DNA of 64,000 nucleotides, from the NCBI GenBank assembly GCA_903813345.2, contig CAIIXF020000001.1, forward strand, positions 9,548,001 through 9,612,000, written 5' to 3'. The notes beneath the pieces were generated by a model. The model was not told the origin of the DNA. It saw only the letters and a program-made list of their open reading frames with translations, and did not search any database. Positions 31,655 to 64,000 of this stretch are shown one piece after another. Made by a program: the position numbers and the translations under genes. Origin of the DNA: Owenia fusiformis. Taxonomy: Eukaryota. The first letter of the stretch is position 1. The number at the start of each line of letters is the position of its first letter.

Positions 31655-32997
31655 GTAAGACAACACATTCGGGTCATAATCACACTTATGAGGACTACAT
31701 GTCCTAATTACTAATGCAATAGCTTAATCCGTCCATCAGAAAAATAACTATGTTTCTAAGAGAAAATAAAATCTATCATTAATTATTAAGTCTTCATCAT
31801 ATTACGGACTTGTTTTTACATGCTAATATAATGGAATAATGTAATTATCCACTCCATATGCTCAGGCTATAGTCTAAGTAAGTGATACATTACTATTATA
31901 TTTGGTGATGACATAGTAATGGTATTATATTTTAAGATAAATAACGAGGAGAGTGCGATCATTTTGTCGAAATCTATCATTTATTATTTTGTCGTCGTGT
32001 TACAGACTTGAACAACACCTAAATAATTGAAATGGAATAATGCAATCATCTACTTCATCTGAAAAAAACATTCTTCAAGCTATAGTCTAAGTAAGCCGAT
32101 GCTTGGTGATGACATACTAATGACTTTATACACTAAATAACAAGTATCATTCTCTCGAGTTTCCTTTGTAAAATTCATATCTTTGATAATTCAATTCTAA
32201 TTTTCAAAGTTGTATCTGGAACAATCCCCCTTTATATGATAATGGTTAATATGGCTACCCCGGGTATTTTGTAAAGTAAAATGTTCTCAGCATATAAAAA
32301 TGTCACAATTGTGTGTTTTTTAGAAACTTACTACTTACTTACTTTTTAGGAACATTGCTCTCATGGTAAATTAGAGTGAAATCACTGTGACATTCTAAGT
32401 TATAGATGAATACGGAGACAATAGTTAATCAGATAATACATTGTTGGGATTAGTTTTTACCACGTTCAAGATAATTCTTTGAAACCCTGGGGCTGAATTA
32501 CCCTATGCATTCGTTCGACTTCACTATTGAACATTTCAAACGTATTCTATCTTTTAAAAGGGAGGCCCATATTGTTCCCTATCAACCACCCTACAGTTTT
32601 AGATCTCGAGTACAACATGTTAAAGTAATCAGCTAAGTTCGGGCAACGTGATCTTCTAGCCTTTCAAGTAGCCGTACAACCTATTCTCTAAATAAAAAAG
32701 TTTGCTTCGAATTATCTCAATTACCTGTATGATCCACGTCATAAAGAAGTTAGTAAAGTTCAGCTTGTTATTAAGTCAAAAAATAATTGCGTCAAGGATA
32801 CTGCTTTGCAATTAAAAACGTGAATAGCAATGGGTCATGGCTATTGGCCATAAAATGGACGATGATGGTCTTTCCTCAAGCCCGTTACGCTTTATTTCAT
32901 ATTATCATTCGAGGCGATTAGTTGAAAGGTTCTTACATTTTTTATACTGATAACGTAAATAGTTGCATAATTAATTTGGTGTATTGATTTCTTTCAG

Positions 32998-33821
32998 CGA
33001 CAGGGCGAATAGTGTCTTTCTCTAGAAACTGTGACAACAATTGGCGTGGCAACAACTGTATCCATGACAACCAATATGTTACGTGTTTTACGTCATGCAC
33101 CACCGACTATTGCAACGACGGTAATGGAATTCCATCTAAGGAAGCACGCCAAAGAAAACAATCAATCATAATTAGAGAGCAAACTACCCTTAAACCTACT
33201 TTGATTAACAGGTTTATGAAATTCAAACCTAGCAAAGAAACCACAAAGCCTGAACAATCAAGAAGAGAAAATATGAATAAGAGTACTAATGTGAGTGATT
33301 TATCAAATAAATCGAAGGTTACTAGGCCAAGCTTGGAAGGGGAAGTATCAAGACAACGCGTAACTAAAAATCATTTTGGATTTAGGTCCATGAACAGACT
33401 TCCAGTTGCCCCTCAAATCCCCAAATCCTTGTATCCTTTCCGCAATCGAAACTTCAACAAAACGAAAGATGGAGCTGTTAGTCAGAAAAAAGCAACCTCG
33501 CCAAAGTTAGTTACCCCTGGGAGTAAACACGTGACTCCAAAAGAAAAAACTAGAGACACGCTAAATAGACCTTTATATCTGAGCCCAACCACTCCAGTTG
33601 TAAGACAAACTCAGGATAAACGGGGAAATAACATTGTTCTTGATGGTAAAAGGAATGGTAGAGGTAATCGTCGACGAGGATACAAAAGAGATGGTCAGAA
33701 TTGTGGCTATGGAAATAGACCTTGTAATATTGCTAAAGGACTCCATGCAAAATCTTTTGAATCACTTTATTGTGTTTTATTCACATATGTATATTTAATG
33801 GTCATAAATTATTCAATGTAA
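32998..33821 (+). CDS. Ly6/three-finger gene A, exon 3 (Cys6-10, long basic stalk, hydrophobic tail); spliced protein ~346 aa
   Basis: ctttcag|STGRIVSFSRNCDNNWRGNNCIHDNQYVTCFTSCTTDYCN... ending SLYCVLFTYVYLMVINYSM*. Confidence 0.85.
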
Positions 33822-41853: not shown

Positions 41854-42009
41854 TTGAAGGAGTGAATTGGTGCTACCATTGTATCTACACAGCCGAAGCC
41901 AACGTGCCGAACCTTGATCCAACCTGCATCTACAAACCACAGAGAGTTGCATATAGCAAATACCCGTGCAATGTCAAATACTGCACGACATACAAGAGGA
42001 CAAATATCG
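41854..42009 (+). CDS. Ly6/three-finger gene B, exon 2 (Cys1-5), using the first donor
   Basis: ttccaatag|VEGVNWCYHCIYTAEANVPNLDPTCIYKPQRVAYSKYPCNVKYCTTYKRTNI-G|gtaggt; paralogous to gene A exon 2. Confidence 0.85.
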
Positions 42010-42780
42010 GTAGGTACATAGCCAACCGCAATTACCCGTGCAATGTGAAATACTGCACGACATACAAGAGGACAAATATCGGTAGGTACATAGCCAACCG
42101 CAATTACCCGTGCAATGTCAAATACTGCACGACATACAAGAGGAAAAATATCGGTAGGTACATAGCCAACCGCAATAATCCGTGCAATGTCAAATAATGT
42201 TCTACATACAAGAGGACAAACATCGGTAGGTACATAACCAACCGCAATTACCCGTGCAATGTCAAATACTGCACGACATACAAGAGGACAAATATCGGTA
42301 GGTACATAGCCAACCGCAATTACCCGTGCAATGTCAAATAATGCACGACATACAAGAGGACAAATATCGGTAGGTACATAGCCAACCGCAATTACCCGTG
42401 CAATGTCAAATACTGCACGACATACAAGAGGACAAATATCGGTAGGTACATAGCCAACCGCAATTACCCGTGCAATGTCAAATACTGCACGACATACAAG
42501 AGGACAAATATCGGTAGGTACATAGCCAATCGCAATTACTCGTGCAATGTCAAATTCTGCACGACATACAAGAGGACAAATATCGGTATGTACATAGCCA
42601 ACCGCAATTACCCGTGCAATGTCAAATAATGTTCTACATACAAGAGGACAAATATCGGTAGGTACATAGCCAACCGCAAAAATGAACATACAGTAGCCAA
42701 CAGCAAGTACCCAAACAATGTCAAATAATACAGTACATACAAGAAGACAAATATTGGTAGGTGCAAAGCCAACAGCAAAT
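41961..42780 (+). repeat. 72-bp minisatellite spanning the exon-2/intron boundary: 10 good copies plus a degenerate one, with further remnants at ~43737-43850
   Basis: The unit tacccgtgcaatgtcaaatactgcacgacatacaagaggacaaatatcg|gtaggtacatagccaaccgcaat occurs at 41961, 42033 ... 42609. Confidence 0.95.
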
Positions 42781-43734: not shown

Positions 43735-44036
43735 TAGTGTGCTACATTACACGGGGACAAACATAGGTAGATACATATAGACCCAAACACTCTTTATCGT
43801 GACAATGTTGCGATCGTGGTACAAGAGGACAACTATCGGTAGGTACATACTGACGTAATGTCAATTATTTTCTAAAATGTTCAGCTGTTCACATTCTAAT
43901 TAGGATACATTAGAGTTAACGTATATGCTAACCTGCACTAAGTACTATACTATATTATATATGTCTTCCAGATAATAGATTATCGTTTTTGCTATTCAGT
44001 CTTCGATTTATAAAATCTACAAAATTTGTGTTTTAG

Positions 44037-44599
44037 AAACTGGGGAACTAGCTTCTTTTTCTCGTCAGTGTGAGGAGCACTCTAGAGGGAACGCCTGCAG
44101 CAGAGATGGCGAATACGAGGCATGCTTCACGGCGTGTACTGAGGACGGTTGCAACACCGGTGATGGACTCCCAGAAGATTTTGACTTCACCACGGATCCC
44201 CCAAAGGCTAAGGGTAAAGGTAAAGGAAGACGACTTAAACCTGGCATGAAAAGAAGATTTCAGCCTAAAGTTCGTCTCAATAAGAAGGGCCATTGCGATA
44301 CAGAACGTTGTCGTTTCTCTGATAGGAACTTGTCTACCAAAAACCCTGGGAACGCAACACTTAACTCAAAGACGCAATTCGTAAAACTCGGAAAATCAGG
44401 GAAGAAAAAGATGACGAATGCAAATACGGATGAGAATGAAACTATGGACAAACCAAGCAAAGACGACACATCCTATATAAGGAGACGAAACAATAATATA
44501 AAAGGGGAAACTTCGAGGAGAAATTCTGCATCTCAAATTAAAATGAGTTTTCCAATAATTGTTACATTTTCTTTGTATATTTTCTTTTCTCGTCTATAA
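44037..44599 (+). CDS. Ly6/three-finger gene B, exon 3 (Cys6-10, basic stalk, GPI-signal-like tail); spliced protein ~259 aa
   Basis: gtgttttag|ETGELASFSRQCEEHSRGNACSRDGEYEACFTACTEDGCNTGDG..., in frame with ORF 44246-44599 and ending NSASQIKMSFPIIVTFSLYIFFSRL*. AATAAA follows at ~44648. Confidence 0.85.
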
Positions 44600-44840: not shown

Positions 44841-46277
44841 CAGTGTTCACAACAGAGTAACTAACACGACCAGTGTTTACAACAGAGTAACTAACACGAC
44901 CAGTGTTTACAACAGAGTAACTAACACGACCAGTGTTTACAACAGAGTAACTAACATGACCAGTGTTTACAACAGAGTAACTAACACGACCAGTGTTTAC
45001 AACAGAGTAACTAACATGACCAGTGTACAGAATAGAGTAACTAACACGACCAGTGTTTACAACAGAGTAACTAACATGACCAGTGTTTACAACAGAGTAA
45101 CTAACATGACCAGTGTTCACAACAGAGTAACTAACACGATCAGTGTTTACAACAGAGTAACTAACACGACCAGTGTACAGAATAGAGTAACTAACACGAC
45201 CAGTGTTTACAACAGAGTGACTAACATGACCAGTGTTTACAACAGAGTAACTAACATGACCAGTGTTCACAACAGAGTAACTAACACGATCAGTGTTTAC
45301 AACAGAGTAACTAACTCGACCAGTGTACACACCAGAGTAACTAACATGACCAGTGTTTACAACAGAGTAACTAACATGACCAGTGTTCACAACAGAGTAA
45401 CTAACACGATCAGTGTTTACAACAGAGTAACTAACACGACCAGTGTACAGAATATGGTAACTAACACGACCAGTGTTTACAACAGAGTGACTAACATGAC
45501 CAGTGTTTACAACAGAGTAACTAACATGACCAGTGTTCACAACAGAGTAACTAACACGATCAGTGTTTACAACAGAGTAACTAACACGACCAGTGTACAG
45601 AATAGAGTAACTAACACGATCAGTGTTTACAACAGAGTAACTAACATGACCAGTGTTTACAACAGAGTAACTAACATGACCAGTGTTCACAACAGAGTAA
45701 CTAACACGATCAGTGTTTACAACAGAGTAACTAACACGACCAGTGTACAGAATAGAGTAACTAACACGACCAGTGTTTACAACAGAGTGACTAACATGAC
45801 CAGTGTTTACAACAGAGTAACTAACATGACCAGTGTTCACAACAGAGTAACTAACACGATCAGTGTTTACAACAGAGTAACTAACACGACCAGTGTTTAC
45901 AACAGAGTAACTAACACGACCAGTGTTTACAACAGAGTAACTAACACGACCAGTGTACAGAATAGAGTAACTAACACGACCAGTGTTTACAACAGAGTAA
46001 CTAACACGACCAGTGTTTACAACAGAGTAACTAACACGACCAGTGTTTACAACAGAGTAATTAACACGACCAGTGTACAGAATAGAGTAACTAACACGAT
46101 CAGTGTTTACAACAGAGTAACTAACATGACCAGTGTACAGAATAGAGTAACTAACACGACCAGTGTTTACAACAGAGTGACTAACATGACCAGTGTTCAC
46201 AACAGAGTAACTAACACGATCAGTGTTTACAACAGAGTAACTAACACGACCAGTGTACACAAAAGAGTAACTAACAC
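44841..46277. repeat. 30-bp satellite, ~48 copies
   Basis: Consensus cagtgtttacaacagagtaactaacacgac, with recurring variants. Confidence 0.97.
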
Positions 46278-46952
46278 GGCACAATATCAACGAACCATGA
46301 GTTTTTATTAGTACTCAGTTCTCTGCAGTCAACTCCTGAATGAGCAGTTCGTTTGGGAGAAACATTGACTTTGTTCCAAAGTCGCCAATTACTAATTGAA
46401 GTTATTTTGCAAAACCCTCTACCACTTGTCCGGAAATACATTACTTCCGACCTGTAGAATAGATATCAGTCACATCTACTACAACCTGGCACTTGTGTCA
46501 AGTTGATTCTAGGTGTGCTCTGTGAAGAAATGAGATTACGACCCGAAATGTTGAAATCGAACATGACATTGTCGGTTGTTACACATCCTTTTACGTCAGA
46601 CACAATTGCATGTTATGAACTTATACTCAATTAAATAACGTTGAAGTTCAAAAATGTTAACGTCAAATGAAAATTTATAATCATTGATTTTAAATTATTT
46701 TGATTATACTTTGAGGATGACTAATTACTACAAACACTCATGTGAACTGATAATAATACTAATTCAAAGTGTGCTAAAGTGTCTCTATTTTGGTACTCGA
46801 GTGGGCCCTACATATGAGATACCCAGTGAAATAATCATATCGGATTATTAAAAGACCATGGTTAGATCCAAATCTGAAAATAAAACGTTGCTTCAATAAC
46901 TGAGACAGTCAATTGCTTTTAAAAAAAGAAAAAAGGATTTACTTCTTCAAAC

Positions 46953-47097
46953 ATGCAGAGTTTCATCGGAGTAGCTGGGGCGGTTAAAGCGCTCGAGGGT
47001 AACAGGGACGATGATACCATAGACAGACTTAACCATCGTTACACCTTTATGGTCATCGCCATTCTAGTAATCGTAGTGACAACTCAACAGTACGTTG
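46953..47097 (+). CDS. Innexin variable first exon V1 (N-terminal helix + TM1)
   Basis: MQSFIGVAGAVKALEGNRDDDTIDRLNHRYTFMVIAILVIVVTTQQYV-G|gtaagt, with the innexin DD..DRLN..YT...QYVG signature. Confidence 0.92.
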
Positions 47098-49418
47098 GTA
47101 AGTTGGATTTTGTGAATGTAATCTATAGAACATTACATAATGACTGATTTGGGCCTGGAGGTCAATTTATAACTTCTTTGAAAATCAAAATATTATTTTC
47201 CTACAAATACACAGTAACATATATATTTCCAATCCGTTAGAGTAAGTCTGTGTATTCAAATGAAGAAAACAATTTTCACAGTATAATTAATCTATGGTTG
47301 ATTTGATTCTTAATTCAAATTTAAGAATACAAAATTTATTCGAATTCAATGCAGACATCGTGATATGGATCTTCAACTTTCGATTCGATTACTTTTTTGA
47401 GGAAAAATAGATGGCAAATAAAGCAAACTAGCTGATACGATATGAACAAAATGTGATCGTATTCGTGTTTCATTTATTTCATTCATTATTTATTCATTGC
47501 GGTCTGCATTTTCTTATAAGGTATCATTTAGGATGTGGATTAAAAATCAGTTAATGGTTCAGAAACAAAACATTTACAGAGAATATTTGAATGACTAAGT
47601 ATGAAAGCATATCTAGATTAAAAAGGTTTTATTATCAAAAAATAGAATTGCATTTTTGGACCACCTTGTACACCTTTCTTGACCGAACTGGCAACTTAAA
47701 TCGTTGCTATTTGTTGATTTGATGAGTATCAAAATGTATATTTTTTATATCAAACGGTATTTATATATTTATATCTGATATACTTTCACCTTTCAGAAAA
47801 TATAAAAATGTTGATGTTCATCTCGTTTAATCTGGTCATTTGCCAGAGATGTCGTGATGTATTCTGCCTTTGGGCTTGTCTTCCTCGATTTGCTCTCGAG
47901 CGTCTTTAATTGCGTGCTTAACCTTTAAGTTGATTTCATTGACATAATACTCAGTCTTAACTTTCACAAAGTATACATACTTTCCAGCCCAATTTTAAAA
48001 GGACAATATGTCAATACCAGCTTGTAAGTTATTGCAAATACAGTAGTTACAAAAAATGTAACAATTAGTTACAGAAACCAAACGCCCGTTACGATGGCTA
48101 CATTATGCTTCCCCTATTGGTAGTGACTTAAAAATACCGTATGGTGATTCATTTTCCTGCGCAGTTCATTGACCTTCCTACGTATTCTTCCTTCGCCCAA
48201 TTATAGTATAGTATAACTGAATTGTATAAAAACAATAATAGTTTGTGTTGAATAATAATTTGGTGTTGACTTTCATACTCTGTAAGATTATGGTTAGAGT
48301 AACACATCGTGTTTTTAAATTGCTTCGTTACACTATTTTGACAAAAAAGCTTCAACACAGGCACAAATCATTATGGATCTTTTTGTCAAAATGCTTTCAA
48401 ACGAATCAATTTAATCCTGCTGAGTAATGCCTCAGTCGCATTTGACCTACAAAAACCGTACGACGGCCGTAGCTTCTCAAAATCAGAAAAGGCTTATCAG
48501 AAAAGATTACAGTACATAAGAGTATAATAAATCTTTTTTTTAAATCTGACAGTTCATGATGACGTTTGTTTCCTTTAGACCAAGCCTAAATAAATAAAAA
48601 ATATGATATCATTTTTCAGGAAGCGTTCTTTATTGAATAGTTAAATGTGAGGTATGCTTATTTTATGGTGCGTGGTTGTACATTTAAAATATTGAAACTG
48701 TATGTAAAATATGTACTAATATATTATTTAAGTTGAATTAATCGAGTTCTGCGTTGAATGTCTTTCAGGCATCTTTCAAAGGAGTTTATAAAACGCTTGG
48801 GTGACCAATATATGTATTCACATGTGTAATTTGAGTAAAAAACAAGTTCCCAAAAAATAAACTCGCCACTGGACAAAATGGTTGAACGATGATGTATTAC
48901 TTTCTTAATGACTAAGGCTAAAATACCAAGTTTTTGTACCACGGGGTATATCGATACAAAGCCAAACATGCCAAAATAAAAATGCAAATGGTGCAATGGA
49001 CATGGGAAGTATACAATTTTCATTCAACACTCAAAAGGAAGTGGGCGAAATAATATCATCTTTTGATAATAAAAATTTGAAGTGTGCAATTTTATGATTT
49101 TTCATTTACGAGAAAAATATGAGACTAAAGAAGTTGAGGTAGTAATATTTGAATAAATTAGGTCAGCAAATGCTTATTTGGATAGATAAGTCCTGAATAT
49201 ACAACCTTTAAATAAGGTAGGAAGAAGTACATGTAAAGTTTAAAACACTTTAGGGTATTTGAGCAAAATAGGATTCATATATCAATACATCCACAATTAA
49301 AAACAAATTGATATCACACAAAAGTATCAAACAATTAAGATCAAAAAGACAGAAAGGAAAGTACCATTCATAAAGGAAACTACTCATTAAGAACTAATCA
49401 AAATACAGTCGTGCCAAC

Positions 49419-49563
49419 ATGGATAAATTCTTTGATGCAGTTTCTGCAGTTGCTAAGATATCTCCGCGTCAAGACGAGGATGGGTGTGATAGGTTGAACC
49501 ACCGTTATACTCTGGCCCTCTTAGCAATATTCGCACTTCTATGTACAACCACACAATATGTCG
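49419..49563 (+). CDS. Innexin variable first exon V2
   Basis: MDKFFDAVSAVAKISPRQDEDGCDRLNHRYTLALLAIFALLCTTTQYV-G|gtacgt. Confidence 0.92.
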
Positions 49564-50536
49564 GTACGTATGTTCATGAACATCTACATTTCTCAATAGT
49601 TACTTTAGTAGCTATTTCATTTTGATTTACAATGTTTCAGTTGTCGGTGCAAATACACGTGTATGGTAACTGATTTGTTCTGATGCATGGCTTTCGTATC
49701 GAGCTAAAAGATGACTGCTCTTGGTTAGGGAAAGGCTTATTCTGGAGTTGTCGTTATCGTTTCATACGATTCAGAATGACTGTTGGCACATTTCTCAATA
49801 TTTCGATTCGCTTTTTTCTCATCTATACTGAATTAGAAACAACCCTTTAATCTAACCTTACCCAATCAAACTGGATGGAACTACATAATCAGGATTGCAG
49901 TCATAGATTCCTTTGTTTCCATATTTAGCTGGCAACTATTTCATATTCAAACTTTAATTTATCTCTAAAGCTTGTGAGACACAGAGGTTTTGGATCCCAC
50001 AATAATGAAATTTCATTACAGTTATTTGTTGGGGTCAGGATAAAATCTGTTATATTGGTTGCCCTAGTCAGAGCGTAGTGATTCATACTCTAGCCTCTAG
50101 ATCTCAGGGTAGACTGATAGTATTCCTTTTAATCCCATTCATTAATTTAGGGGATTTCCACATTCATTATCATACCTTGTTGAGAAACGGCAGTAAAACA
50201 ATATAAAACGCTTATATACATGTATATAGTCATAAACATTGGCCATCAAAGACTGCATACTCAAACATAAAAATGTGAAGGGCCATAACTTTTTTAGTAA
50301 AGGGTCGCGCCTGACGCTGACACCCAAGGATTAGCTGGTCTTTGCAAGTCCCAAGATCATTTTATATTCTTAAGAAAGCGCGTGTAGGAAGACGTGATTA
50401 CTTCTAGTTGAACGCCTTAGGTGGAACCAAATTTGAGTTGAGCCATCATTAAAATTGGACAAACAAACAGAATTAAGCTTTATAGATATTGTTTGAATAT
50501 TTAAAAAGGATATAACTGAGAACTGGCAATTCAATC

Positions 50537-50681
50537 ATGGAAAAGTTTTTTGATGCCGTTGGTGCTGTAGCCAAAATCTCTCCAAGCAAAGATGAGGACG
50601 GTGGGGATAGATTGAACCACAGATACACGATTGCTCTTTTAGCGATATTTACTTTCATTTGTACAACCACACAATATGTTG
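50537..50681 (+). CDS. Innexin variable first exon V3
   Basis: MEKFFDAVGAVAKISPSKDEDGGDRLNHRYTIALLAIFTFICTTTQYV-G|gtacgt. Confidence 0.92.
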
Positions 50682-51339
50682 GTACGTATACTCCCAATCC
50701 TCTCCAATTTCATTTTGTAACATTCTAACAGGAGCATTTTGTTTTTCATCATAACTTCGCTTTTGCATTTACTTGTTTCACTTAAAAATTCACTTAAAAA
50801 CAGCGACAAGGAACTCGTGGTTGTTCGTCTTGAAATCATTTTTTAATTCATTTACAAAAATCAACTATGAAATATAACGAATCAGAGTGCTTGTTTTCAG
50901 TGCAATATAACTAAACCATGGACAACCAAATGTATTTGCTGTATCTTAGCGTAATAATTTTAGTTCACGTTCATTAATCTATAGGGCATTTCCACATTAG
51001 CCTTACCTTGTTAGAAAGGGGTAGTAAAACAATGTAAAACTTGTACATAGCCATGAACATTGGCCATCGAAGATTGCATACTCAAATATAAAAAGGGTGA
51101 AGGGGCCATAAATTATCCAATAGTGCTTAACGTTGTTACTAAATGGTCGCGTTTGACGGTCACACCCAAGGATTAGATGGTCTTTGGAGATCATTTTATT
51201 CTCATCAAAGCTCGCGTGGGAAGACGAGATTACTTCTAGATGAACGTCGCTGGTGTAACCAAATTTAATTTGAGCCATTATAAAAACTGCACATACAAAT
51301 TTAAAAACGTTATTTTAAACGAGAACTGGCAATTCAATC

Positions 51340-51484
51340 ATGGATAAGTTTTTTGATGCCGTTGGTGCTGTAGCCAAAATCTCTCCAAGCAAAGATGAGG
51401 ACGGTTCGGATAGGTTGAATCACAGATACACGATTGCTCTTTTAGCGATATTTACTTTCATTTGTACAACCACACAATATGTTG
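51340..51484 (+). CDS. Innexin variable first exon V4 (not in the ORF track)
   Basis: Translated by hand: MDKFFDAVGAVAKISPSKDEDGSDRLNHRYTIALLAIFTFICTTTQYV-G|gtacgt. Confidence 0.92.
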
Positions 51485-53958
51485 GTACGTATACTAAATT
51501 ACAATCCTCTAAAACATAGTTGTAACATCCTAACAAGAGCATTTGGATCTTCATCATAATGAAACTCATTTTGTATGCATTTAGTTGCTCCACTTAGAAA
51601 TGCATTTAGAAATAGCGACAATGAACTCGTAGTTGTCAATATGCAACTTCTTCAAATTCTTATAACTTCCAATAACTTAATAAGTACGTATATACTGTTT
51701 AGACTGACTTCAAACGTTTACTGTCAACATATATAAAAAATATCATCAGTTCCAACAAATTTCTGCCAATATCTGTTACCCTGGCAAGATATTGAATGTC
51801 GAAAAAGGTAAAAAAGGTATTTTTCAACTTGCTTCAAATTCATCAATTTCCTTTTCAAAATCATCTTCAAGCTTTCAGAAGTTAAAATCTTACTTTAGAT
51901 TTGAAACAATTGTTACACTGTTGGTCACAGGTGGTGACGTTTTATCATATTAATGCCTCGTTTTGTCATAAAGCATCTGTAACACAAGATTCCGAACCTG
52001 ATGGCTGGTATAAAAAATAAACACAATTCAAACATTCCAATATAAAAATATCAAGGGGAAACAAAATTTTCTCCGCTGACAATGCCTCTTTAACGATGGC
52101 CTTGTTAAATGACAACCTTGTCAGCCAGGACTAAATTCTATGTGTTCCAGACCTTGACTTTTGGACGTTAAATTTTAATCGACGTTAGGGTTGTGGGTTT
52201 GCCCTTTTTTACAAATATCTGATAATAAATGATTTATGGATTAAGGTCAATTGTAAATCATCAGGCCTCGAAATTATACATTGTTGTATACTGGCGCCAT
52301 GAAGAATATTTAATAGTGTCAATGTACGATAATATAAGAAACGTGAAATTTAAAGTCATACTTGAAATATAACGCATCGAAAAAGAATCATAATTTTTAC
52401 GTTATCACTGTTTGGCCATTTTAATTGACCGGTGCCATAAACCTGCCATCCACCCCGATGTGAAATTCCCACTCTACTCCTACCATTTGAATTCCGCGCA
52501 AATCAGCATAAGTCAGCACTTCTTCCTCTTACCATCACCATTAGGGTGTCAACCATTGAATGAGAGAGCGAAATTCGTCTTGGATTTTCATGTTAGAAAA
52601 CGGAAAGAAATCAAAGATCGTGTATCACGTGTAATTAAAATTAACCAGATTTATAGCTCCATTATAAGAATATATTTGGATATCAACTAACGGTATGGAT
52701 TAAGAGACCATCGTCACTTTAAATGTACATCTCAGCATTTCGAATCCAATTACATAGGCAAATGACATCAATTAAAATTTAATTCTTGAAATATAACTTA
52801 CTAGTAATCAACATTTAAATGATATGAAACTAAACTCTGATTAATACTATAATAAGTCTGTGCACACACGATTGACTCGGATCCCCACTCAGATATGAAT
52901 ATGATGGCACAATGATCGAAAACGCTCCGATATTTTGATTTCTATGCCATGCCCAATGTAAATTCTACCCGTTACCCATTTAGATTGTATTTTGGAGATC
53001 AGACTGTGCCCCCTTAACAATTAATCTCAAAACGACTTTCGCTTGATCTTTTGAAGTTGAATTTTTATTGCCAACCAATTATGTGTGTTTTTATATTACA
53101 AGGTTCATTGTTTGTCTATCTCCAAACATAATATTTTGCACGTTCATCACGTTGAATGTCGTTCCGCACTGCATCGAGCATCTTGAACTGTCTGAGGTAT
53201 CCTTTCTCCGAAGAAGGACTTCGAGGGCTCGGTGTGGCATCAAGAAATTGAGCTATTTTTCTGAGAGACTATATTTTAATATGATGATTTAAGATGCTTC
53301 TTGGTTTCTGGCTTCAAATGAAATTGCGTAGAGAAAATGTTCATCTTTGATTTTTCAATTTGTAGTTTTGAAAATTAAAATCTTGATAGAAAAGATGAAG
53401 AATGCCCCTTTTCTCTTCATTGGCTATGCATCCGATGATAGATAAAGAGGATATCCACTGGAAGATATCCTCGGGATTCAAAGTATCCGAGTCATTCTTT
53501 TTTTAAGGCATTAGTGTATGATAATGTAGATACGAATCGTATACAGCAATCGTGCATGTTGTTCATGGATTAACTGGTATAGGGTCAATCCTTCATTTAA
53601 CTTCGGATGCCTTGTTTTTTGATTGACCTGTATATATGTCAAGTATAAACAAAGAACATGTGGTTAAAGTAGATGCAAATTTACCTTCTCCGTAAAAATC
53701 AAATTGCACGTTTCTCGAATGTGGTTGAATAGAGTCGCACACACATTAATGGGTAATTTATACCATAAGTAACGCCAGGAAGGCAAAACTGAATCACATT
53801 GAGAAATATTTATGTTTGATGCCAAAACAGGGGCCTCAGTCATTTAAAAAATCTTATCGTCGTATAGCTCGAGAAGTTAGGACACCATAAAGTTAAGACA
53901 TATAAAATTGAAACTCTGGCTCCTATCGTAACTGAGTTGGAGTTGGAAGGAAGACAAG

Positions 53959-54112
53959 ATGGGGGGCATGGATATGTTTATGGCTGCCGTGAGCAGCGCT
54001 GGAAAACTGCAGTCAAAAAGGGATACCGATGGCGTTGATAGAATAAACTCTGTAGGATCTGTAGCTTTACTTGCTGTGTTTGTGCTTCTCACTAGTACAT
54101 CGTCTTACGTAG
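53959..54112 (+). CDS. Innexin variable first exon V5 (homologous ATG at 53968; upstream ATG 53959 adds MGG)
   Basis: MGGMDMFMAAVSSAGKLQSKRDTDGVDRINSVGSVALLAVFVLLTSTSSYV-G|gtaagg. Confidence 0.88.
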
Positions 54113-55992
54113 GTAAGGACGTCTTCATTGGGGAAATCGCCATTGTCATTCTCGACCGTAGAACACAGGGGTGGATCTGAAAACTAACAAGGGGTTCACA
54201 TTTCAAGTCAGAAAAAAATTTGGGCCACTAACATCAAAGATTGGGTCCAAATTTTGAAAACTTAAGGCCCATTTTCTTTATAATGTGACCTAAAATATAA
54301 ATAATAAGGCCTGAGGGGCCCACTGATGCCCTAAAAGGCCCATAATTGGGGCCTTACAATTTTGTGGGGCCCAACATTTTTCTGAGCCCATCCACCCCAG
54401 ATCCGCTAGCGGAACACTGGTGTAAAATACAGCTAGACTCCGGAGACAAATTCACCTTTCTCCATGTCTTACTTTTTATAAGTCCATGTTAAAAACCCCG
54501 AAGCACAGTGGCTATTAGTAATCATAACCCTCTGACTAAAAGACATAGAGTTATAAATATAAAGAAATAATTGCCAGCGTCTTAATCTTGCCTTAAGACT
54601 TTTTACCCCTCCCCTCTGTGTTCTTCAAATTCCAAAGGTACGGGGGTACACTCTTGGGGCAAGACTACCTACAAATAAAGGTAGAAGAGGCAGGCTGAAG
54701 AGACGATGACAGCTATTTTGAATGGGCGTTCTTGCTTGACAAAAACCCGATTTGGGTGAGGCTAGATCAGAGAATTGTTTCTTCTTCCTTGAAAGAGTGA
54801 AGATGACGCTCTCTTTTAGAGACGCAGAATCAGGAGGGTAGAGGTTTTTGGGACAGGCTGTCGTTTTAACACTATATATTGTGAAATATATCTGTTACAA
54901 CATTCTAAGTCTGTATTAAAGAACAAGTAACCTGTCATGTTCTGAAGAATATATTGAGCACCTTTGTTTGAAGAACTAAAAACCTACTTCAAGTTTGAAT
55001 CACAATATGCATGTCTGTATTGTTTTACCCTAAATAAGGCAAATGTATGATTGATATATTGGACCAAACAAAAACGAGTGTTTTTTTCTTCTGACGAATA
55101 TTTCGAAGTTTCATATGTACAAATCTAAAAGTAGTTGTTTTTATAACAAAATGGTTTAAGTTTGCAATATTTCGATTAATTCTATAATTTTTTTCAGGAA
55201 CTAAAATATATACTTAGTTTCAGTTTGTACAAATCAAAGTATAGAAATGGTACAAATTAAAAAATCATTTTCTAAATCTGGTTTGAAATAAGGACACTAG
55301 ATAGATACGTAATAAAATAGATTATGTAAACAACACCTTCAGTTGAAGATAAGTAGTCAGCAAATTCCATTGAAAATTTTAAAATCTGAAAATTAAAGCT
55401 ATATTTCAAAAAGGCAAAATGAACAGATGATGGCTCAAAGTATTTATCTTGCATGATCCACTTTTTACATTCACTGATTAGAGCAGTTATGTGTCCGTTG
55501 ATGTAACATTTTGTAATAACAATAAACCCCAAAGCTAAAGAGGGATAGGCAGTAATTATAAATGGGCGAAATCAGAATTTATTTGTATGTATTTGAAAGC
55601 ATATTCCCGTTTGCCCTTCACCAGCATTCATTTCACTTGACAAACTAATCTTTGAGAAAACACGTACTTTATTCGTTTGGCGTCAGTGAGTTTGTAAAGG
55701 TTTCTATGGATACATTTAGGAATTCTTTACAGATGCGTGGTAGTCAGGTATAATTGCATGTAGTACATTCATTTGCCATTGGGACATGTGAATAAGGTGA
55801 TGTCGATCAGATCCACTTGACTAACCCTTGCTTCAATATTGAGATGACCCGTTTTGAACCTGGACTTCCACTTTTTTAACATCACCAGTACGCTTCGGGA
55901 GTAGGCCTTTCGCCAACCTCGACAACGATTCAAACAGGATAGGAGTGTAACACTATAATCGAGACTTTTAAAAAACATAAGCGTGAATCAAG

Positions 55993-56137
55993 ATGGATCA
56001 GTTCTTTTCTGCGTTTGGGGCTGCTAGTAAGCTCTCTCCGCAGTACGATGTTGACGGGTGTGATCGGCTCAATTCTCGCTATAGCCTGGGTTTGGTGGCC
56101 ATCTTTGCGCTTCTTGTTGGCACCAACCAATATGTCG
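55993..56137 (+). CDS. Innexin variable first exon V6 (not in the ORF track on +)
   Basis: Translated by hand: MDQFFSAFGAASKLSPQYDVDGCDRLNSRYSLGLVAIFALLVGTNQYV-G|gtgagt. Confidence 0.92.
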
Positions 56138-56645
56138 GTGAGTTAAAAAACTATTAATGAGGCTGAACCTTTAAAAACTGTTGGGTATAATCCATAAAAT
56201 TTAATCATATAATTTGTGACGACGAATAAGTGAAGATTGCACATTAATTATCTAGTTTAATTATTCACTGTATGCATAGGTGACTTTGTTAACTCGATCA
56301 AAATTACTCTTTTGGATACAAATGTAACAAATTATTTATGATTGGTACCAAAACAACTTCGACACATTTGTTTGATATGACGCGTTAAAAATGTGGTTTA
56401 TTGTAATGTTACCAGGTATCACAAGAAATAAAATAAAACATGATGTATGAAGTAAATCTCTTTGAAAGTTACTGACGCCAAACGAGTTACAACATCACGT
56501 TTACCAAGGACTTTTAAAATTTAAAAAACTGGAGTCACATCTCACGTATTGACGCAACCACCTCGGAACTTGCGAAACAAGCTACGATTATTGGAATTAA
56601 AACTTATTTGTATTGAATATTGAATAACAAGCTCAAAGGGAAATC

Positions 56646-56790
56646 ATGGAGAAGTTTTTTTCTGCGTTTAGAGCAGTTAATAAACTCGCTCCTCATAGAG
56701 ATTGCGATGGGTCAGACCGAATGAATTCTCGTTACAGTGTCGGGTTGCTTGCTGTGTATGCGCTGGTTGTGGGTACAGGCCAGTATGTGG
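56646..56790 (+). CDS. Innexin variable first exon V7
   Basis: MEKFFSAFRAVNKLAPHRDCDGSDRMNSRYSVGLLAVYALVVGTGQYV-G|gtaaga. Confidence 0.92.
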
Positions 56791-58046
56791 GTAAGACTCC
56801 TTATAAACAATGTCTTTTGCAACTTTATTTTAATTTCGGGTGTAAGTGGTAGAACTTTTTTAATATGGCCGGTTTGCGCATGCAGTTTACGTTTCGTGTC
56901 AAATGTTTAATAAGCACTTAGCCAGTATTTACTTTTTCTAACCAGACATATCAAAAGTTCTTCTTTTAAGTCTTGAACAATCTAAATTGGTCCCAATGAC
57001 TACACATTGGCCACAACTGCATTGTCATCTAAACATCAGTTTATGTTGTCAATAAGTACATCATGTGACTCACCACAAATTAGTCCTTTTTCTCAGTAAT
57101 CTTACATTACAAAAGGCCTGTCTATATAAATGTGCGAGTCGGAATCTTGAAACCACATTTCTTTTCATAAATATAGACTTTTTGATTCCTTAGACTGTCT
57201 GATTATTGACCCGTGAATCTATTGAGCCCAGAGACAGGAATGGGAAACATAGCGTCCTTTGTAGCATGGGTGGGGTCATCCAGTTCGTCTTGAGAATGTT
57301 TGTGAAATATATGAAACACGAGATGTAAAATCACTGAAATCGTAGGGCATATTTAATGTTAAAACCTTTTCAGATAGGCATCTTTACATTAATAGTTGTT
57401 CATCAATCGTGAAAGGATCTCCATGTCCTGTCTTATCATTTGCTATCACATCATCCGTTACACCATTTTCTAGTTGAGATCAAATGTGTAACTTTACAAT
57501 ATAAAAGTGGATTAGATTAAATGTACCCAAACTAATATGAGTCTGGGGTACATTAAAATTATTGTAGAAGTAGCGCTTTTCAGGGTACAATTCCCCAATT
57601 TCTGGGTACAGCAGTGACACAGTAAGAGATAGACAGTCTGTTTAAAATGTCACGTCAGCCAGTACTTTTTTTACGATGGTAGAATATCACTTTGACATTG
57701 TGGCCCATTTCTTTGGATCAATAATGATTCTCGGGGCATTTCATTTCGCATTCTGTATATTTTCAACCAAAAGACAAGTAAGTGAGAATCACTTTGAATG
57801 GTCAGTTTGTGAATCAGTTGCTGATGCCAGTTACATGTGTATTACTCCCCCATAGAAAGATAAGACAATATGAAAGCGTTAGATAGGAGTGATTTCTTTA
57901 TTAGATGACATAAGATATATTGTAAATAGATAAGGTTGAAGTTCAAGATTTAAGTGCACTGGTGATAAATTAGAGTAAGGCCTTCAGTCCTTCATGTTCT
58001 CTTGAATTCTGACCACAGTGCATTGGACATTCTTAGAGACAGCACT

Positions 58047-58191
58047 ATGGAACAGTTTATAGGAGCAGTTGGTTCCATTGGAAAACTTGATGCTAAATTC
58101 TATGACGACTCCGTTGATAAACTTAACCATAGATACACAGTTGCTGTTTTAGCAGTTTTCGCTCTACTTGTTTCAACATCTAGTTATGTCG
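58047..58191 (+). CDS. Innexin variable first exon V8
   Basis: MEQFIGAVGSIGKLDAKFYDDSVDKLNHRYTVAVLAVFALLVSTSSYV-G|gtaagt. Confidence 0.92.
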
Positions 58192-59357
58192 GTAAGTTAG
58201 TACAAGCAGTGACAGGTGCACGTCATCATATATGTTATATATAGATGATTATTTTGAAATATATGTTCTTATCACGTTTTTAGGTATTACTGCAAAATGT
58301 CTTGGGTCTGATTATTTCACTAAAATAAAATGTAGGACGCGTTTATATGCTTTTTATAGCCGATAAAATGTTATTTATAAATGCAAAGGTATGCAAAAAT
58401 TAAGTGTTTGTCTAAAGATTCAAACTTGGGGTTTTTCATACTCGTTATTTATATCCAAGGTACAATCACGAACGTGTCCAATCGCTGACACTGCTAACAT
58501 GTTTCTTTTTTAAAATGAAAACATGACTTAAAGCTGTTATTATATAACATGCGTTCAGTGATAATATCCCTATGGAGATAACGCACGAAAGAGACCATTT
58601 TGAGCGTAACGTTTTAACTGGTTTAATACCTGGTGTCAAATATCGGAAATAATCTCTATAAAATATGTTATTGGGTACTTCAATACTAAAAAGTAAATAT
58701 TTAATTTGTTTTGGGCTGTGGCTACAAACACGTTTTAAGTACAGGAAAATATTGTTTAAAGGTAAATTACGTATTTCGGTGTTATTGACTTTTGATTCAA
58801 GTTGTCAATCGACGATTCATTGGTTGCGAAATATTTATCACTTATGATATGAAGAAATATCATCCAATCGGAAATAGCAGATACATGAGATAATAGGTAC
58901 AAGTAAGCAACACGACGTGCCTTTGTTTATATATTCAAAGAAAAACTTTTTTATTTACCTATCCCATTGAAAAGTGTACTTTTGACTTCCGAGTTTACTA
59001 GAACATCCTTTTTTACGTTTTACGTTTATAAGATCACGTCGCCCTGATATCATTTCAAAGAAAGATTAGAACAATGACAAGTATACCACAATCCATAAAT
59101 GCCACTGACAGTTGAAGATATATTACTTCAGTTATTTTATTATCACCAATACTAGAATAGAAGGTGACCAGTCACCCAGTGATAACAAAGGACGCTAGAT
59201 ACAACCCTAACGTACTCCAGACAATAGATACCAGACTCGTTTCTACTTTCTGATCAGTTGTAAAACTGATAAGCTTTAGTGTTCAAGTGCAAAGTTAAAA
59301 TTATATGATAGGACTGTGGACACATTCATTGTATAGGACTCTCTTAGAGTAAGGACC

Positions 59358-59502
59358 ATGGAACGGTTCATTGGAGCCATTGGCTCAGTTGGAAAATTAG
59401 ACGCCAAACTTCACGATGATGCGGTTGATAGAATCAATCATAGATACACAGTCGCTGTTTTAGCAGTTTTCGCTTTATTAGTCTCAACATCTAGTTATGT
59501 CG
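59358..59502 (+). CDS. Innexin variable first exon V9
   Basis: MERFIGAIGSVGKLDAKLHDDAVDRINHRYTVAVLAVFALLVSTSSYV-G|gtaaga. Confidence 0.92.
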
Positions 59503-62500
59503 GTAAGAAAGGATACATACATATTGTTAATAAATTTCGCGATCGACCAAAGTTCAATTTAGTATATATTGAAATTTAACATAGAAACATTTCTCACAAG
59601 TTGTCATGAGTTTACTTTAATTGAGCTATAGAAAACACTTTTGAATAAGATTACTTTAGTGTATAATTATGAGACGTCGGCCAGACAAAATTGGGCAATG
59701 AGCAAAAAATGTTTAAAAGGAAGAATCAATAATAAGTACTTACACGAAATGTAATTTCAATCATAGCAATGACGTTAAATGAAGCTTATAATTATCTCAG
59801 ATTCGTTTTTGGGGCTTACATAGGTTTCGTGTTATTTTTCTTCGTTTGTGTGCTTAGATTGACGATCATGTACCTTATGTTGCGTCCTTAGAGGTGTGTG
59901 TGTTTATTTATTTATTTAGATATACACTTTTTTAACAGTGGCACTCTTACATTAAGGTGCATCTAATCGAAAAATATCCACAATGCCATGTTGGTTAAAA
60001 ACAGACATTTTATCAAACTAAAATGAGTCTTAAAAAGAATTAAAACATAGGTATGTTGATATTTACTTAAAATCTTATTTAGAAAGCGTTTTTAGAGTCG
60101 AATAAGACACCATATTCGTGTTGTTGACACGATCAATTTATCATTTGAAATTATATCTCATGGACATATATTTATAAGATATAAGATATAACTTTGGTAG
60201 TATGATACCTTTAGGCGTTTTTATGATCTGGCTATCTGTCATTCGATTCGATCCTGTTTTCTTCTTGGGGTGACTTGTTGCAGTTTGTTCAGTAGTTATT
60301 TTGATATGATTTGTTTACTTTCTGCGATAAAGTTTCATAAAAAAGGATAGATATCCATATTTCTTTTATCTATATTTATGCAAAATAGTTTTTTGAGGGT
60401 GACTTTTACTTGTAATTTTGATATTACTTTTTTCAGTTGGTTTAGTTTGTTGAATAGAAGATGTTCAAGCAAATGATTTAAATAAGAGCTAAAAGTCAAG
60501 TTGAATTCTTGTTTTGGTCTAAATTACTCTCTTGTGGTACAAATCTTTGAAATATCAACTCGTTCGTAAGTGCTAAGCATAGATTGCAGCAACATTAGTA
60601 AAATTCAAAAAATAAAACACCCACAACCTGAATTAACAAAAAACACATTTAAAATGCATATATTTACAATGTCAGATGAATGTGGTTGTATCTTAACAGT
60701 TAGTTATGAGGATATGGATGTTTCGTCGAAAGTCCTGTGTACATTAATGTTGCCCTTAAGCGGCACGAGTATTTTTTAACTGTCAAGTTTAGCGTCATCG
60801 TTGTAACTTTACTACATTAACGACCAGACTCCTAGGTCATCGTATACTGTGAATCTGCTATAACGTTCCTAATTCAGTTTAAGTTCATTAATTTCAACTT
60901 AATGACCTAATTTATTGAGGTTCAAATGTGTGTATAATTAAGCAATACTAATTTACTACTCCAGTTTTATCTTATACTCCTTGGGCCTGAACAGTGCTGT
61001 TAATTGATCGACAGTTAAAAAGTTAAAAGTTATATAACATGTAGCTCTTCTGAATAACAGCAGATCTAAATTGATCCTTGTAGAACGCCATGTAGAATTG
61101 AATCGTTGTAAATTTAATGAACAATCCAGAATGTTCATTGTTTCTGGAATTCTATGACCACGATTATCAGGTTCAAATTCAATACATACATCGGGACAAA
61201 AGTTGTGATCTGTAGCCCCAATAAACGACTGGTATTGCAACTGCAGTCTGGTCATTCTATAAGACATACTGTGATAGACTTACATTAAACGCGCCCACAA
61301 CGTCAAATTGATGATGAACGTGACTTTTGAGTTCAAACTGGCTGGTTGTCTGGTATTTCAATAAACAAAAATGCGTGCAGAATAAAATGTGACAGTTTTG
61401 AAATATGGAACAATGGATTGGTCTGGGGATAGTCTTGTAATGTGAAATGGACATTGTTTATTAATGGCTGTGGACAAAGAATGGCGTCCTTTATCGTGAT
61501 ATATAACTTGTGACCATACTCTGGACTCTGGACGTATCACTTCTCCGTTACTTTAATTTTACTAAAATATTTTAAGTATTGTTACAAATTGCCTTAATGG
61601 TTTCATGAAATAGCATAATATCAAAACAAATTGCAAAAATCCAAATATAAAATATTTACATTCAGTAGAGATGCTGAGCTCGATTGCCGTATAATACTTC
61701 ATTTTAGGCACCATACGGCGATTGCCGTATCATACTTAAATTGTATAAAACCGTTATTTTTCAAAATAAAGCTCGGGCGTAAAGACGTATATCTTGAGTT
61801 TGTTCCATTTTTTAAGGTACGTATGTATATTTGTATGTTTAGATCTTTAACTTGCTATACAATTAGCTAAGCTTGTTTAGCGTGCTTAAAATAGTAAGTA
61901 AATGAATAGCCTTTTGAAAATAAAATACCCAAGTCAAAAGTACACGGATCACTTCTGAAATACTATAAAAATCGAGGAAAATAATATCCAGTAATTTTTA
62001 ATCATTCTTTGGAAATATCAAAAATAAGTATGGAAGCTATTTTATTTCTCTATAAGAAAGAAGATTGTTTTAAATGTATTTCCCTCGAGGGAATTAAAAT
62101 TCTATCATTGGGAATTCACGCTATAGTCTTATGAACTTTAATGAAGGACTTTACCGTAAATTGACGACGTGATTTGTATGCAGCTGTACGTTAACATATT
62201 CCTTATCTTAACTTACCTTGCGTGCGTGGAGCTAGGGGCAACGTGAAGTCCAATGGTCCTTTAGTCTAGTTCAATAAATATTTTTAAAATAAATATGCCG
62301 CCTGGTTCATAAGGGAACCTGGGATAAGATGGCCTTTAGTGATTTAGTAGTCTTGATCCAGTTTTGAAACTATTCTTGCTCCGAGTAAGTCGTGTAGGTG
62401 CCAAGTTGGAAGGTGATTCGAAAGAAGACTCTATTCTATTGTAGACAATGAATTAATGATTAGGTTGTTACAATTGGGAAACAAATGCAACGGGACCATT

Positions 62501-62724
62501 TTCCCCCAGTTTCCCTTATTGCATTTGAGACTTTGTTCGGGGTGGTGTCAATTTAAATGACTACATGGTCTGATTTTTAAACTTTAAATTGCAGTAATGA
62601 ATAAGCTATTACGTAATTGTATATGGAGAACACTAAGGTACTATCTTGCCCCTGGCTCCCCTATTAGTGTGAACTTAATGTTGTCTTTCTAAAAAAACTA
62701 ATTTACTAAGTTTCTTTCTAGACG

Positions 62725-63375
62725 ATGGGGCGGTTCAAGACAAAACAACGTTGTGCATCCCAAAATATTCATGGCGAGAATAATGAACAAATGCACCAAC
62801 TGATTGACTCAAAATATATAAAGGCTTCAACCAGAGACCGTCTGTGTGAACTTGCCCAAATAGACTTTTTTAGTTTTCGAAAAAGGCACAAACTAAAGCC
62901 CCTTTCATTTTGTAAATCCTGCATCAAAAACGTTGAATTAGAAAACGGTGGAAACGCACCCGCAAGAAAACAAAACCTATCACATGTTAATCACGATCAT
63001 AGTTACAATTCTGGAGGGAAAAAAGACAATGATATATCTATACAAACAACAAATACTATTCTTGATCTTGGAGATAATCACCAAGACTTGTCGAACCAAA
63101 TGGAGACGTTGCCATCGTCATATTTAAAGAACCTAATCTATGCACTGGGGAAAATTATTAAACAGGAAATAAAAACATATTCTAACAACTCAAACATTGA
63201 TTTGGATTTTGAAAAATTACGCCTGAGCAATGCAGATTATTTCACGTCATGCCCAAAACTACTTGCAACATTGCTTTTAAGCATATCTGGTGTTCCAATG
63301 GACTATACGTTTAAATCAAGCAATGTCCCTGGTCAGTATCCAGATGCATTAGAAACCCTAGAATACACGTTTTAA
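62725..63375 (+). other. Unassigned 216-aa ORF, possibly transposon-derived; not innexin-like
   Basis: A long ORF for this base composition, preceded by an acceptor-like tttctttctag (ending 62721), with a CKSC motif. I recognise no family. Confidence 0.3.
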
Positions 63376-64000
63376 ATCAGCATGATGCTTGTACTTCAAG
63401 TAGTTACTACTTCATGTTTGCTCTACATACGCTTGTTTTACGTTATATAAAGCATATCCCGCAAAACATATGTAACGATTTTTATGTGAATAGAAAACGT
63501 GAAAAACAACTAAAAACTCGTGCGCGAATTATTTTTAGGTATTTCAAAATGCTTTATCACGCGTCAAATGTCCGCGCAAAATAATTTAACAAGGAATGTT
63601 TATAATGTTCCATGTTCAGTTTGTGCATTTTAGTGCAACATACTTTTCTAATGACAGTGTTTATAGGCCTACCAGATCTTCCAAAATGGTGAAACGGAAT
63701 AAACGAATTCAAATTTTTCTTTCTATTGCAGTTAACCAGATTTCAATAGAGCTTTGAGTTGATATTCGGGTCATTATACGACGTTCATAAAATTCCGCCA
63801 TTAATCGCCATCTCCATAATATGACTACACCAGTAATGCAAAAGTGGGTTTAAATCTAGGATGAAGAATCCTAGGTTTGAATCGATGAAAATGAAAAAGT
63901 TTCAAATAATTCCTATCCATTTTCGCACGCTCGGTCTTTACTGCGTTCGACCGACGGGAGCCGAGTGAACGAAGATGATTTCTATCGGCAATTGGAAAGA

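Follow-up and report, generated by a model that had tools for sequence, protein, structure and literature searches.

The 64,000-nucleotide stretch of Owenia fusiformis DNA analyzed here (the window; contig CAIIXF020000001.1, positions 9,548,001 to 9,612,000) contains, between its positions 46953 and 59502, nine homologous coding exons, all on the plus strand, which are named V1 to V9. They probably make up the 5′ portion of a single innexin gene of this annelid, which would be a clustered variable-exon locus with nine variable (V) modules set on one constant body. In this proposal, one V exon per transcript would be spliced to shared downstream exons encoding the first extracellular loop (E1), the second transmembrane helix (TM2), the cytoplasmic loop, TM3, the second extracellular loop (E2), TM4 and the C-terminus. 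The product would be a set of up to nine subunits with identical docking loops and an identical cytoplasmic dome, differing from each other in the N-terminal helix (NTH) of the pore funnel, in the acidic loop in contact with that dome and in the innermost helix, TM1.

The nine exons were located by a motif scan and by profile hidden Markov model (HMM) searches of the six frames of the window, which is AT-rich (GC 0.31–0.39). The profile built from the nine copies recognized them with E values from 2.5e-32 to 2.3e-26, the next-best segment of the window giving E = 1.5. The limits of the array given in an initial annotation of this DNA were exact, since 46953 is the first base of V1 and 59502 the last exon base of V9. 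Every V exon comprises 145 nucleotides (nt), i.e. an ATG-headed run of 48 codons plus one base, ended by a phase-1 donor, so the invariant length that had been claimed holds for the nine copies when counted from the aligned Met. The open reading frame (ORF) from the ATG is intact in all nine, and in most of them an in-frame stop lies a few codons upstream. A GT donor occurs at the identical phase-1 position in nine of nine, with the sequence G/GT(A/G)AG or G/GTACG (the slash marks the splice boundary), and the exons end as TAY GTN G/GT. It is worth noting that the Gly49 codon is GGT in every copy while the two codons before it vary in their third positions, which fits selection on the splice donor. 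Such a tandem series of nine paralogous exons, every one ending in a 5′ splice site, is a trait of variable-first-exon clusters.

The starts of the V exons are spaced by 653–2628 nt. V1 (46953–47097; donor G/GTAAGT; HMM E 1.6e-27) runs, as an alternative first coding exon, from Met1 to the first base of Gly49, and matched on its own the Pfam Innexin profile at positions 1–29 with 22.7 bits, under the cut-off of 25. The same kind of exon is found in V2 (49419–49563; E 2.5e-32), V3 (50537–50681) and V4 (51340–51484), all three with the donor G/GTACGT, and in V5 (53968–54112; donor G/GTAAGG; E 2.3e-26), which is the most divergent copy. V6 (55993–56137; donor G/GTGAGT) is identical to residues 1–49 of the protein CAH1772864.1 (P0121). 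It is followed by V7 (56646–56790; donor G/GTAAGA), V8 (58047–58191; donor G/GTAAGT) and the last V exon, V9 (59358–59502; donor G/GTAAGA), which is identical to residues 1–49 of CAH1772865.1 (P0001). The plus-strand stretch 59503–64000 would be the start of the intron leading to the constant exons (E1 to C-terminus), placed past the window end.

Concerning the constant part, the search with the V profile yielded P0001, an Owenia fusiformis innexin of 402 residues, as the sole long match among 7997 scored candidates; among short proteins compared with the profile (38 candidates of 26–86 residues) none had E ≤ 0.01. The 90% cluster of P0001 has one further member, P0121, also of 402 residues. 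All 27 differences between the two proteins fall within residues 2–46, residues 47–402 being identical, and the public annotation thus attaches two V exons or more to one set of downstream exons. As judged from these sequences, one constant region common to V6 and V9 is shown. The idea that the docking loops are common to the isoforms stands to the extent that the V6 and V9 proteins share both extracellular loops, its basis being two annotated proteins. The assignment to the innexin family (Pfam PF00876, profile positions 1–333 of 333) was made with 354.5 bits for P0001 and 344.1 bits for P0121, the cut-off being 25. In a 63-sequence alignment, C54, C72, C259, C276, Y99, Y100 and W102 are invariant, so that the loop cysteines and the YYQW motif are present; in Caenorhabditis elegans INX-6 the loop cysteines are paired as Cys58-Cys265 and Cys76-Cys248 (PMC5146279).

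The position of the exon end in the protein was examined with an AlphaFold model derived from the 63-sequence alignment (mean predicted local distance difference test, pLDDT, 82.8; predicted template modelling score, pTM, 0.81) and by alignment of P0001 with INX-6 (E 4.7e-54, about 31% identity). The model displays a helix at residues 2–12, a loop at 13–21 and helices at 22–43 and 45–48, followed by the elements of E1. Its top five Foldseek matches were all INX-6 entries (E 1.6e-14 to 5.8e-12), the best one being 5h1q (E 1.6e-14, template modelling score, TM, 0.70/0.78), so that the fold is that of innexins and pannexins, with an N-terminal helix and four transmembrane helices. According to the structural description of INX-6, the pore is narrowest at the funnel built by the N-terminal helices, and TM1 lies innermost among the helices. 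The residues past TM1, Ile52 and Gly53, are disordered and separate it from E1, D25 links the N-terminal loop with the dome on the cytoplasmic side, the docking surface is made of E1 and E2, and a second constriction of the pore comes from the E1 helix (PMC5146279). Owenia V48 and G49 align with Ile52 and Gly53 of INX-6, which places the exon end at the natural hinge between TM1 and E1. The initial annotation was thus right in locating the boundary just past TM1, the exon being made of the N-terminal helix, the NTH-TM1 loop and TM1. Its wording that the variable segment is exactly the pore/gating module goes too far with regard to the E1 constriction, which is constant here (compare PMC5146279); the variable unit is therefore a cytoplasmic-side pore module, not the whole pore. 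Its rejection of a code for recognition in trans is reasonable, as the variable part is cytoplasmic or membrane-embedded. Residues D21, D24, N27, A36, T44 and Y47–G49 are invariant across the nine copies, including D21, which aligns with the dome-anchoring D25 of INX-6. The likeness to INX-6 (PDB 5H1Q/5H1R) is one of family and fold, with the difference that the NTH-TM1 loop of INX-6 is four residues longer than that of the Owenia protein. We know of no exon array for inx-6.

The selective regime was estimated from Nei-Gojobori counts over 48 codons for all 36 pairs of V exons. In all pairs except V3/V4, the proportion of synonymous differences (pS) was 0.56–1.0 versus 0.09–0.48 for the proportion of nonsynonymous differences (pN), and the ratio of nonsynonymous to synonymous distance (dN/dS) was 0.09–0.40 where a distance was computable. 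In 25 of the 36 pairs synonymous sites were too saturated for a distance, with pN of 0.10–0.48. Examples at the low end are V8-V9 (pS 0.56, pN 0.09, dN/dS 0.10), V6-V7 (dN/dS 0.10) and V2-V3 (pS 0.81, pN 0.11). By these counts, all copies were shown to be under purifying selection, with dN/dS around 0.1 at near-saturated synonymous sites. Nucleotide identity between exon copies was 44–80% (97% for V3/V4), and the flanks could not be aligned between copies except for the V3/V4 duplication and 31 nt upstream of V8 and V9. Sequence variants within the species were taken from run X4, which stems from another individual, looks like DNA (29 of 30 bins with coverage) and served for this aim alone. 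Among the best-supported differences between X4 contigs and the reference, eight of eight changed codons in V1, V2, V6 and V7 were synonymous, including a three-base change from AGC to TCT (both Ser); 122 differences more were found beyond these. A reading of the whole array as pseudo-exons or chance ORFs was ruled out by the selection and donor evidence.

The V3/V4 pair is a recent duplication (50138–50824 versus 50970–51636) in which the exon block is identical in 141 of 146 columns, with no gaps, the upstream flank shows 279 matches, 68 mismatches and 75 gap columns (about 80% identical) and the downstream flank 113 matches, 33 mismatches and 13 gap columns (about 77% identical). The near-identity covers the exon, some 20 nt upstream of it and the donor, and the synonymous divergence of the exon, 0.07, is below the divergence of the flanks. 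Selection could account for this pattern, and so could gene conversion limited to the exon.

As to what differs between the copies, the peptide strings quoted in the initial annotation as signs of variable charge and cysteine content were all found, LEGNRDDD in V1, SPRQDEDGC in V2, LQSKRDTDG in V5, APHRDCDGS in V7 and DAKFYDDS in V8. A cysteine in TM1 (Cys42) is limited to V2, V3 and V4, as it had stated, and loop cysteines are found at position 23 in V2 and V6 and at position 20 in V7. The net charge of residues 1–27 does vary, being −2 in V1–V4, V6 and V8, −1 in V9, 0 in V5 and +1 in V7. Compared to a reference set of 61 related lophotrochozoan innexins, the V copies depart at sites that are 92–98% conserved (R17, D19, D20, V42 and Q46). 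At R17 the nine copies carry six different residues; D19 is replaced by Y in V8 and by H in V9, D20 in six copies (V2–V7) by E, T, V or C, V42 in four (V2–V5) by C or T and Q46 in three by S. The closest paralogues, P0002 and P0003, likewise depart from the DDD motif, so part of this relaxation belongs to the whole Owenia clade. In a tree of 49-residue N-termini (106 rows), V1–V9 together with P0002 and P0003 formed one clade with support 99/98, within which the V copies were monophyletic in 25% of the bootstrap trees. P0002 and P0003 were considered as possible isoforms and discarded as such, because they are about 60% identical uniformly along their length and are thus separate genes.

Several observations, given in this and the next paragraph, weigh against the proposal that nine V exons, each with its own promoter, are all used on one body. 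The public proteins join only two of the nine V exons (V6 and V9) to the constant part, and do so by annotation. No constant exon lies inside the window: no frame of the P-x-x-C-W type was found after V9 within it, and a tblastn search of P0001 residues 50–402 against it gave a best E of 3.3. The variability in TM1 and NTH had no peak at the helical periodicity of 100 degrees, so no pore-facing side of TM1 is singled out. Three runs of raw RNA reads, sampled at 6, 6 and 12 in 100 of each, gave mean depths of 0–0.33 in the V-exon bins and no splice joints of V exons, and are uninformative on expression; the reads piled only on repeats near 51.7–51.85 kb, 59.9–60.5 kb and 63.4–64 kb. Finally, V5 is without the RYT motif of the family, has the highest dN/dS (0.35–0.39) and may be decaying. 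Every V exon would be used according to the proposal, and the alternative is that the array is partly defunct, with unused pseudo-exons among its copies, above all V5. In its favor, V5 has VGS instead of the conserved RYT at positions 29–31, gives no Pfam match alone and has an ambiguous start owing to the in-frame ATG upstream at 53959 (three residues more); two further in-frame ATGs lie downstream at 53974 and 53980. On the other hand, V5 keeps an open frame and its GTAAGG donor in the exact phase, retains D21, D24, N27, T44 and Y47–G49, and shows pN values (0.35–0.48) far under its pS values (0.63–0.92). Decay of part of the array is regarded as a decidedly unlikely explanation.

Concerning the way in which one V exon would be chosen, each could have its own promoter, as in first-exon models, or the V exons could be internal, mutually exclusive cassettes spliced from a shared non-coding 5′ exon, in the style of Dscam or myosin. 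The 150 nt upstream of each V exon are A-rich. With a crude acceptor score, which takes the best AG in the 120 nt upstream and the fraction of pyrimidines preceding it, the nine V exons gave 0.44–0.72 versus a mean of 0.65 for 2000 random windows, seven of the nine being at 0.44–0.67. This is adverse to the cassettes, as is the fact that all nine exons open exactly at the start codon, like those of variable-first-exon clusters. V8 and V9, however, share TCTTAG close upstream of the ATG, a possible acceptor that lies, as TCTTAG/AG, within their 31 alignable upstream bases and speaks for cassettes. The 350-nt upstream flanks of eight non-redundant V exons were searched for common 8-mers with a tolerance of one mismatch, and no shared motif beyond chance was found, as 8-mers reached eight of eight flanks just as they did in 51 of 60 random sets. 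No motif of individual promoters was seen in this way, which is a second point for cassettes; the same 8-mer search of the upstream flanks gave no shared sequence resembling a Dscam-type selector beside the variant exons, which is a point against them. Variable first exons with their own promoters are preferred, as moderately probable, to a model in which a shared leader is spliced to one V exon in a mutually exclusive manner, because the donors are strong, acceptors are not evident and a start codon heads each exon; internal cassettes are a somewhat unlikely alternative.

Isoforms of one innexin gene that differ in their N-terminal part, as found here, are known from Drosophila shaking-B (shakB/inx8) and C. 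elegans unc-7. shakB produces three proteins, ShakB(L), ShakB(N) and ShakB(N+16), from five transcripts (PMC5412853), heterotypic N+16/L junctions rectify (PMC2663713) and the amino terminus has been implicated in gating (PMC4197764; PMC5412853). It resembles the Owenia locus in having alternative N-terminal parts on a common C-terminal body, and differs from it in that L and N+16 diverge up to the extracellular end of TM2, so that their docking loop E1 is different (PMC5412853), whereas the Owenia locus has nine paralogous exons of equal length that end before E1. unc-7 likewise has many N-terminal variants from one innexin gene, with ten isoforms in six N-terminal groups that differ in their dependence on junctional voltage (Vj), and the rectification of UNC-7b/UNC-9 junctions depends on charged N-terminal residues (PMC7455501). 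Unlike the Owenia modules, the unc-7 variants vary in length (24–168 residues) and sequence before TM1, and in the passages of PMC7455501 that describe them TM1 is not exchanged and there is no tandem array of homologous exons. The isoforms of mollusc and brachiopod innexins, with different extensions before an unchanged NTH and TM1, follow the unc-7 pattern and not that of Owenia. Among the mollusc and Lingula innexins (P0020–P0215), many genes carry 2–13 annotated isoforms in which NTH and TM1 are identical and only a preceding N-terminal extension varies, its length going from 0 to over 60 residues and some extensions being His-rich; a widespread unc-7-like pattern in lophotrochozoan innexins looks to be the case.

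By analogy with the N-terminal isoforms of shakB and unc-7, the Owenia isoforms would be expected to differ in voltage gating, rectification or permeation, and isoform-specific conductance, gating and rectification are plausible by that precedent, as would be the free co-assembly and the combinatorial code put forward in the initial annotation. A more specific possibility is that each cell chooses, by its promoters, one or a few of the nine pore-entrance modules, and that, where neurons dock by their identical extracellular loops into heterotypic or heteromeric junctions, the pair of V modules meeting at a junction sets its polarity, rectification and permeability. This is a tentative idea that we consider unlikely. 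If true, pure pairings would come in 9 homotypic and 36 heterotypic kinds, heteromers would raise the number greatly, and the locus would be a protocadherin-style one serving the physiology of electrical synapses instead of recognition.

A contrasting explanation is that the array is mainly a regulatory device, with nine promoters placing the same channel in different tissues or stages, the protein differences being tolerated drift. The compact spacing of the V exons (653–2628 nt) suits small promoters, and the isoforms of mollusc and brachiopod innexins (9 isoform groups) in many cases differ only upstream of an unchanged NTH and TM1, so that alternative starts are often what 5′ diversity in this family amounts to. 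Nevertheless, a regulatory device has no need for a duplicated coding exon held at dN/dS around 0.1, the copies differ at sites that are 92–98% conserved in the 61 relatives, and N-terminal differences do alter gating in unc-7 and shakB, so that the purely regulatory explanation seems rather doubtful. It has also been considered that the V module could set the partners of co-oligomerization or trafficking, i.e. a cis assembly code, rather than pore properties. N-terminal deletions of innexins abolish function, and large ones in Cx37 disturb trafficking and oligomerization (PMC5412853). Against such a code, INX-6 subunits are described as touching each other in their cytoplasmic dome and their extracellular domain, the transmembrane bundles being loosely spaced (PMC5146279), and both contact regions are constant in Owenia. 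It seems reasonable to regard an assembly code as very unlikely.

From the point of view of gene architecture, UGT1A is a clustered variable-first-exon locus. Vertebrate clustered protocadherins and chelicerate sDscam genes, which are 5′ cassette arrays with alternative promoters, are similar to the Owenia locus as well, in having tandem paralogous 5′ exons, each with a donor and with no acceptor in evidence, that are joined to constant exons (PMC4835542, PMC9258826), as V6 and V9 are by annotation. The difference is that in these three systems the variable exons encode extracellular recognition or substrate-binding domains, whereas the Owenia variable exon encodes an intracellular helix and the pore-lining membrane helix of a channel. 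Within the innexins, 337 proteins were surveyed (120 cluster representatives plus the listed members of 20 clusters), 281 of which had the Y-V-G motif and enough sequence on both sides of it. Among 472 pairs that were at least 97% identical over the 200 residues after the motif, only the Owenia pair was less than 90% identical in the 48 residues before it. No description of a variable-exon array of an innexin was found in the literature searched, whose coverage leaves out subscription journals and supplements. The array architecture, with nine exons of the same length that replace TM1, looks undescribed, while the functional idea is a well-precedented one, given shakB and unc-7, and not a new concept.

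In shakB and unc-7, the N-terminal isoforms of one innexin gene decide the rectification of electrical synapses, the variation being small in shakB and consisting of extensions of varied length in unc-7. Nine NTH and TM1 modules of the same length on one body would be a ready-made natural domain-swap series, usable to map the residues of the funnel, the acidic loop and TM1 that set voltage gating, rectification and permeation. The locus would also extend the clustered variable-exon design from recognition and substrate-binding domains to a channel pore, and could offer a tractable entry to the diversity of electrical synapses in a slowly evolving annelid.

Other observations concern the sequence around and between the V exons. 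Between V4 and V5, at about 51692–51852, there is a high-copy transcribed repeat, where the depth of RNA bins rises up to about 25, the first mate is mostly on the minus strand and many reads have loose ends or internal joints; the summed word depth of run X4 in this interval is 1726, versus about 5–12 in most other bins. Excess depth occurs likewise at 54580–55169 and 63430–64000. In the intron after V9, a plus-strand open frame of 217 residues (62722–63372) with no Pfam match lies on a 2307-nt X4 contig (61663–63969) that has about three times the depth of most bins, and may be part of a repeated element.

Upstream of the array, a 30-nt tandem repeat (44841–46278; 47.9 copies, 89% matches) ends some 675 nt before V1, and the frames open on both of its strands are an artefact of the repeat. 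A 72-nt tandem repeat (41956–42679, and 42591–42779; 10.1 copies, 94% matches) is covered by a long minus-strand frame with weak Pfam matches to DPBB_1 and IMP2_C, which are probably spurious, as no stretch passes alone. Two paralogous plus-strand open frames, 32988–33818 and 43979–44596, the second one separated from the array by the 30-nt repeat, have no Pfam match and share a Cys-rich stretch, …SFSR.C…C…C.T.C..D.CN.G.G.P…. Their cysteine pattern is reminiscent of small secreted proteins of the Ly6/uPAR type.

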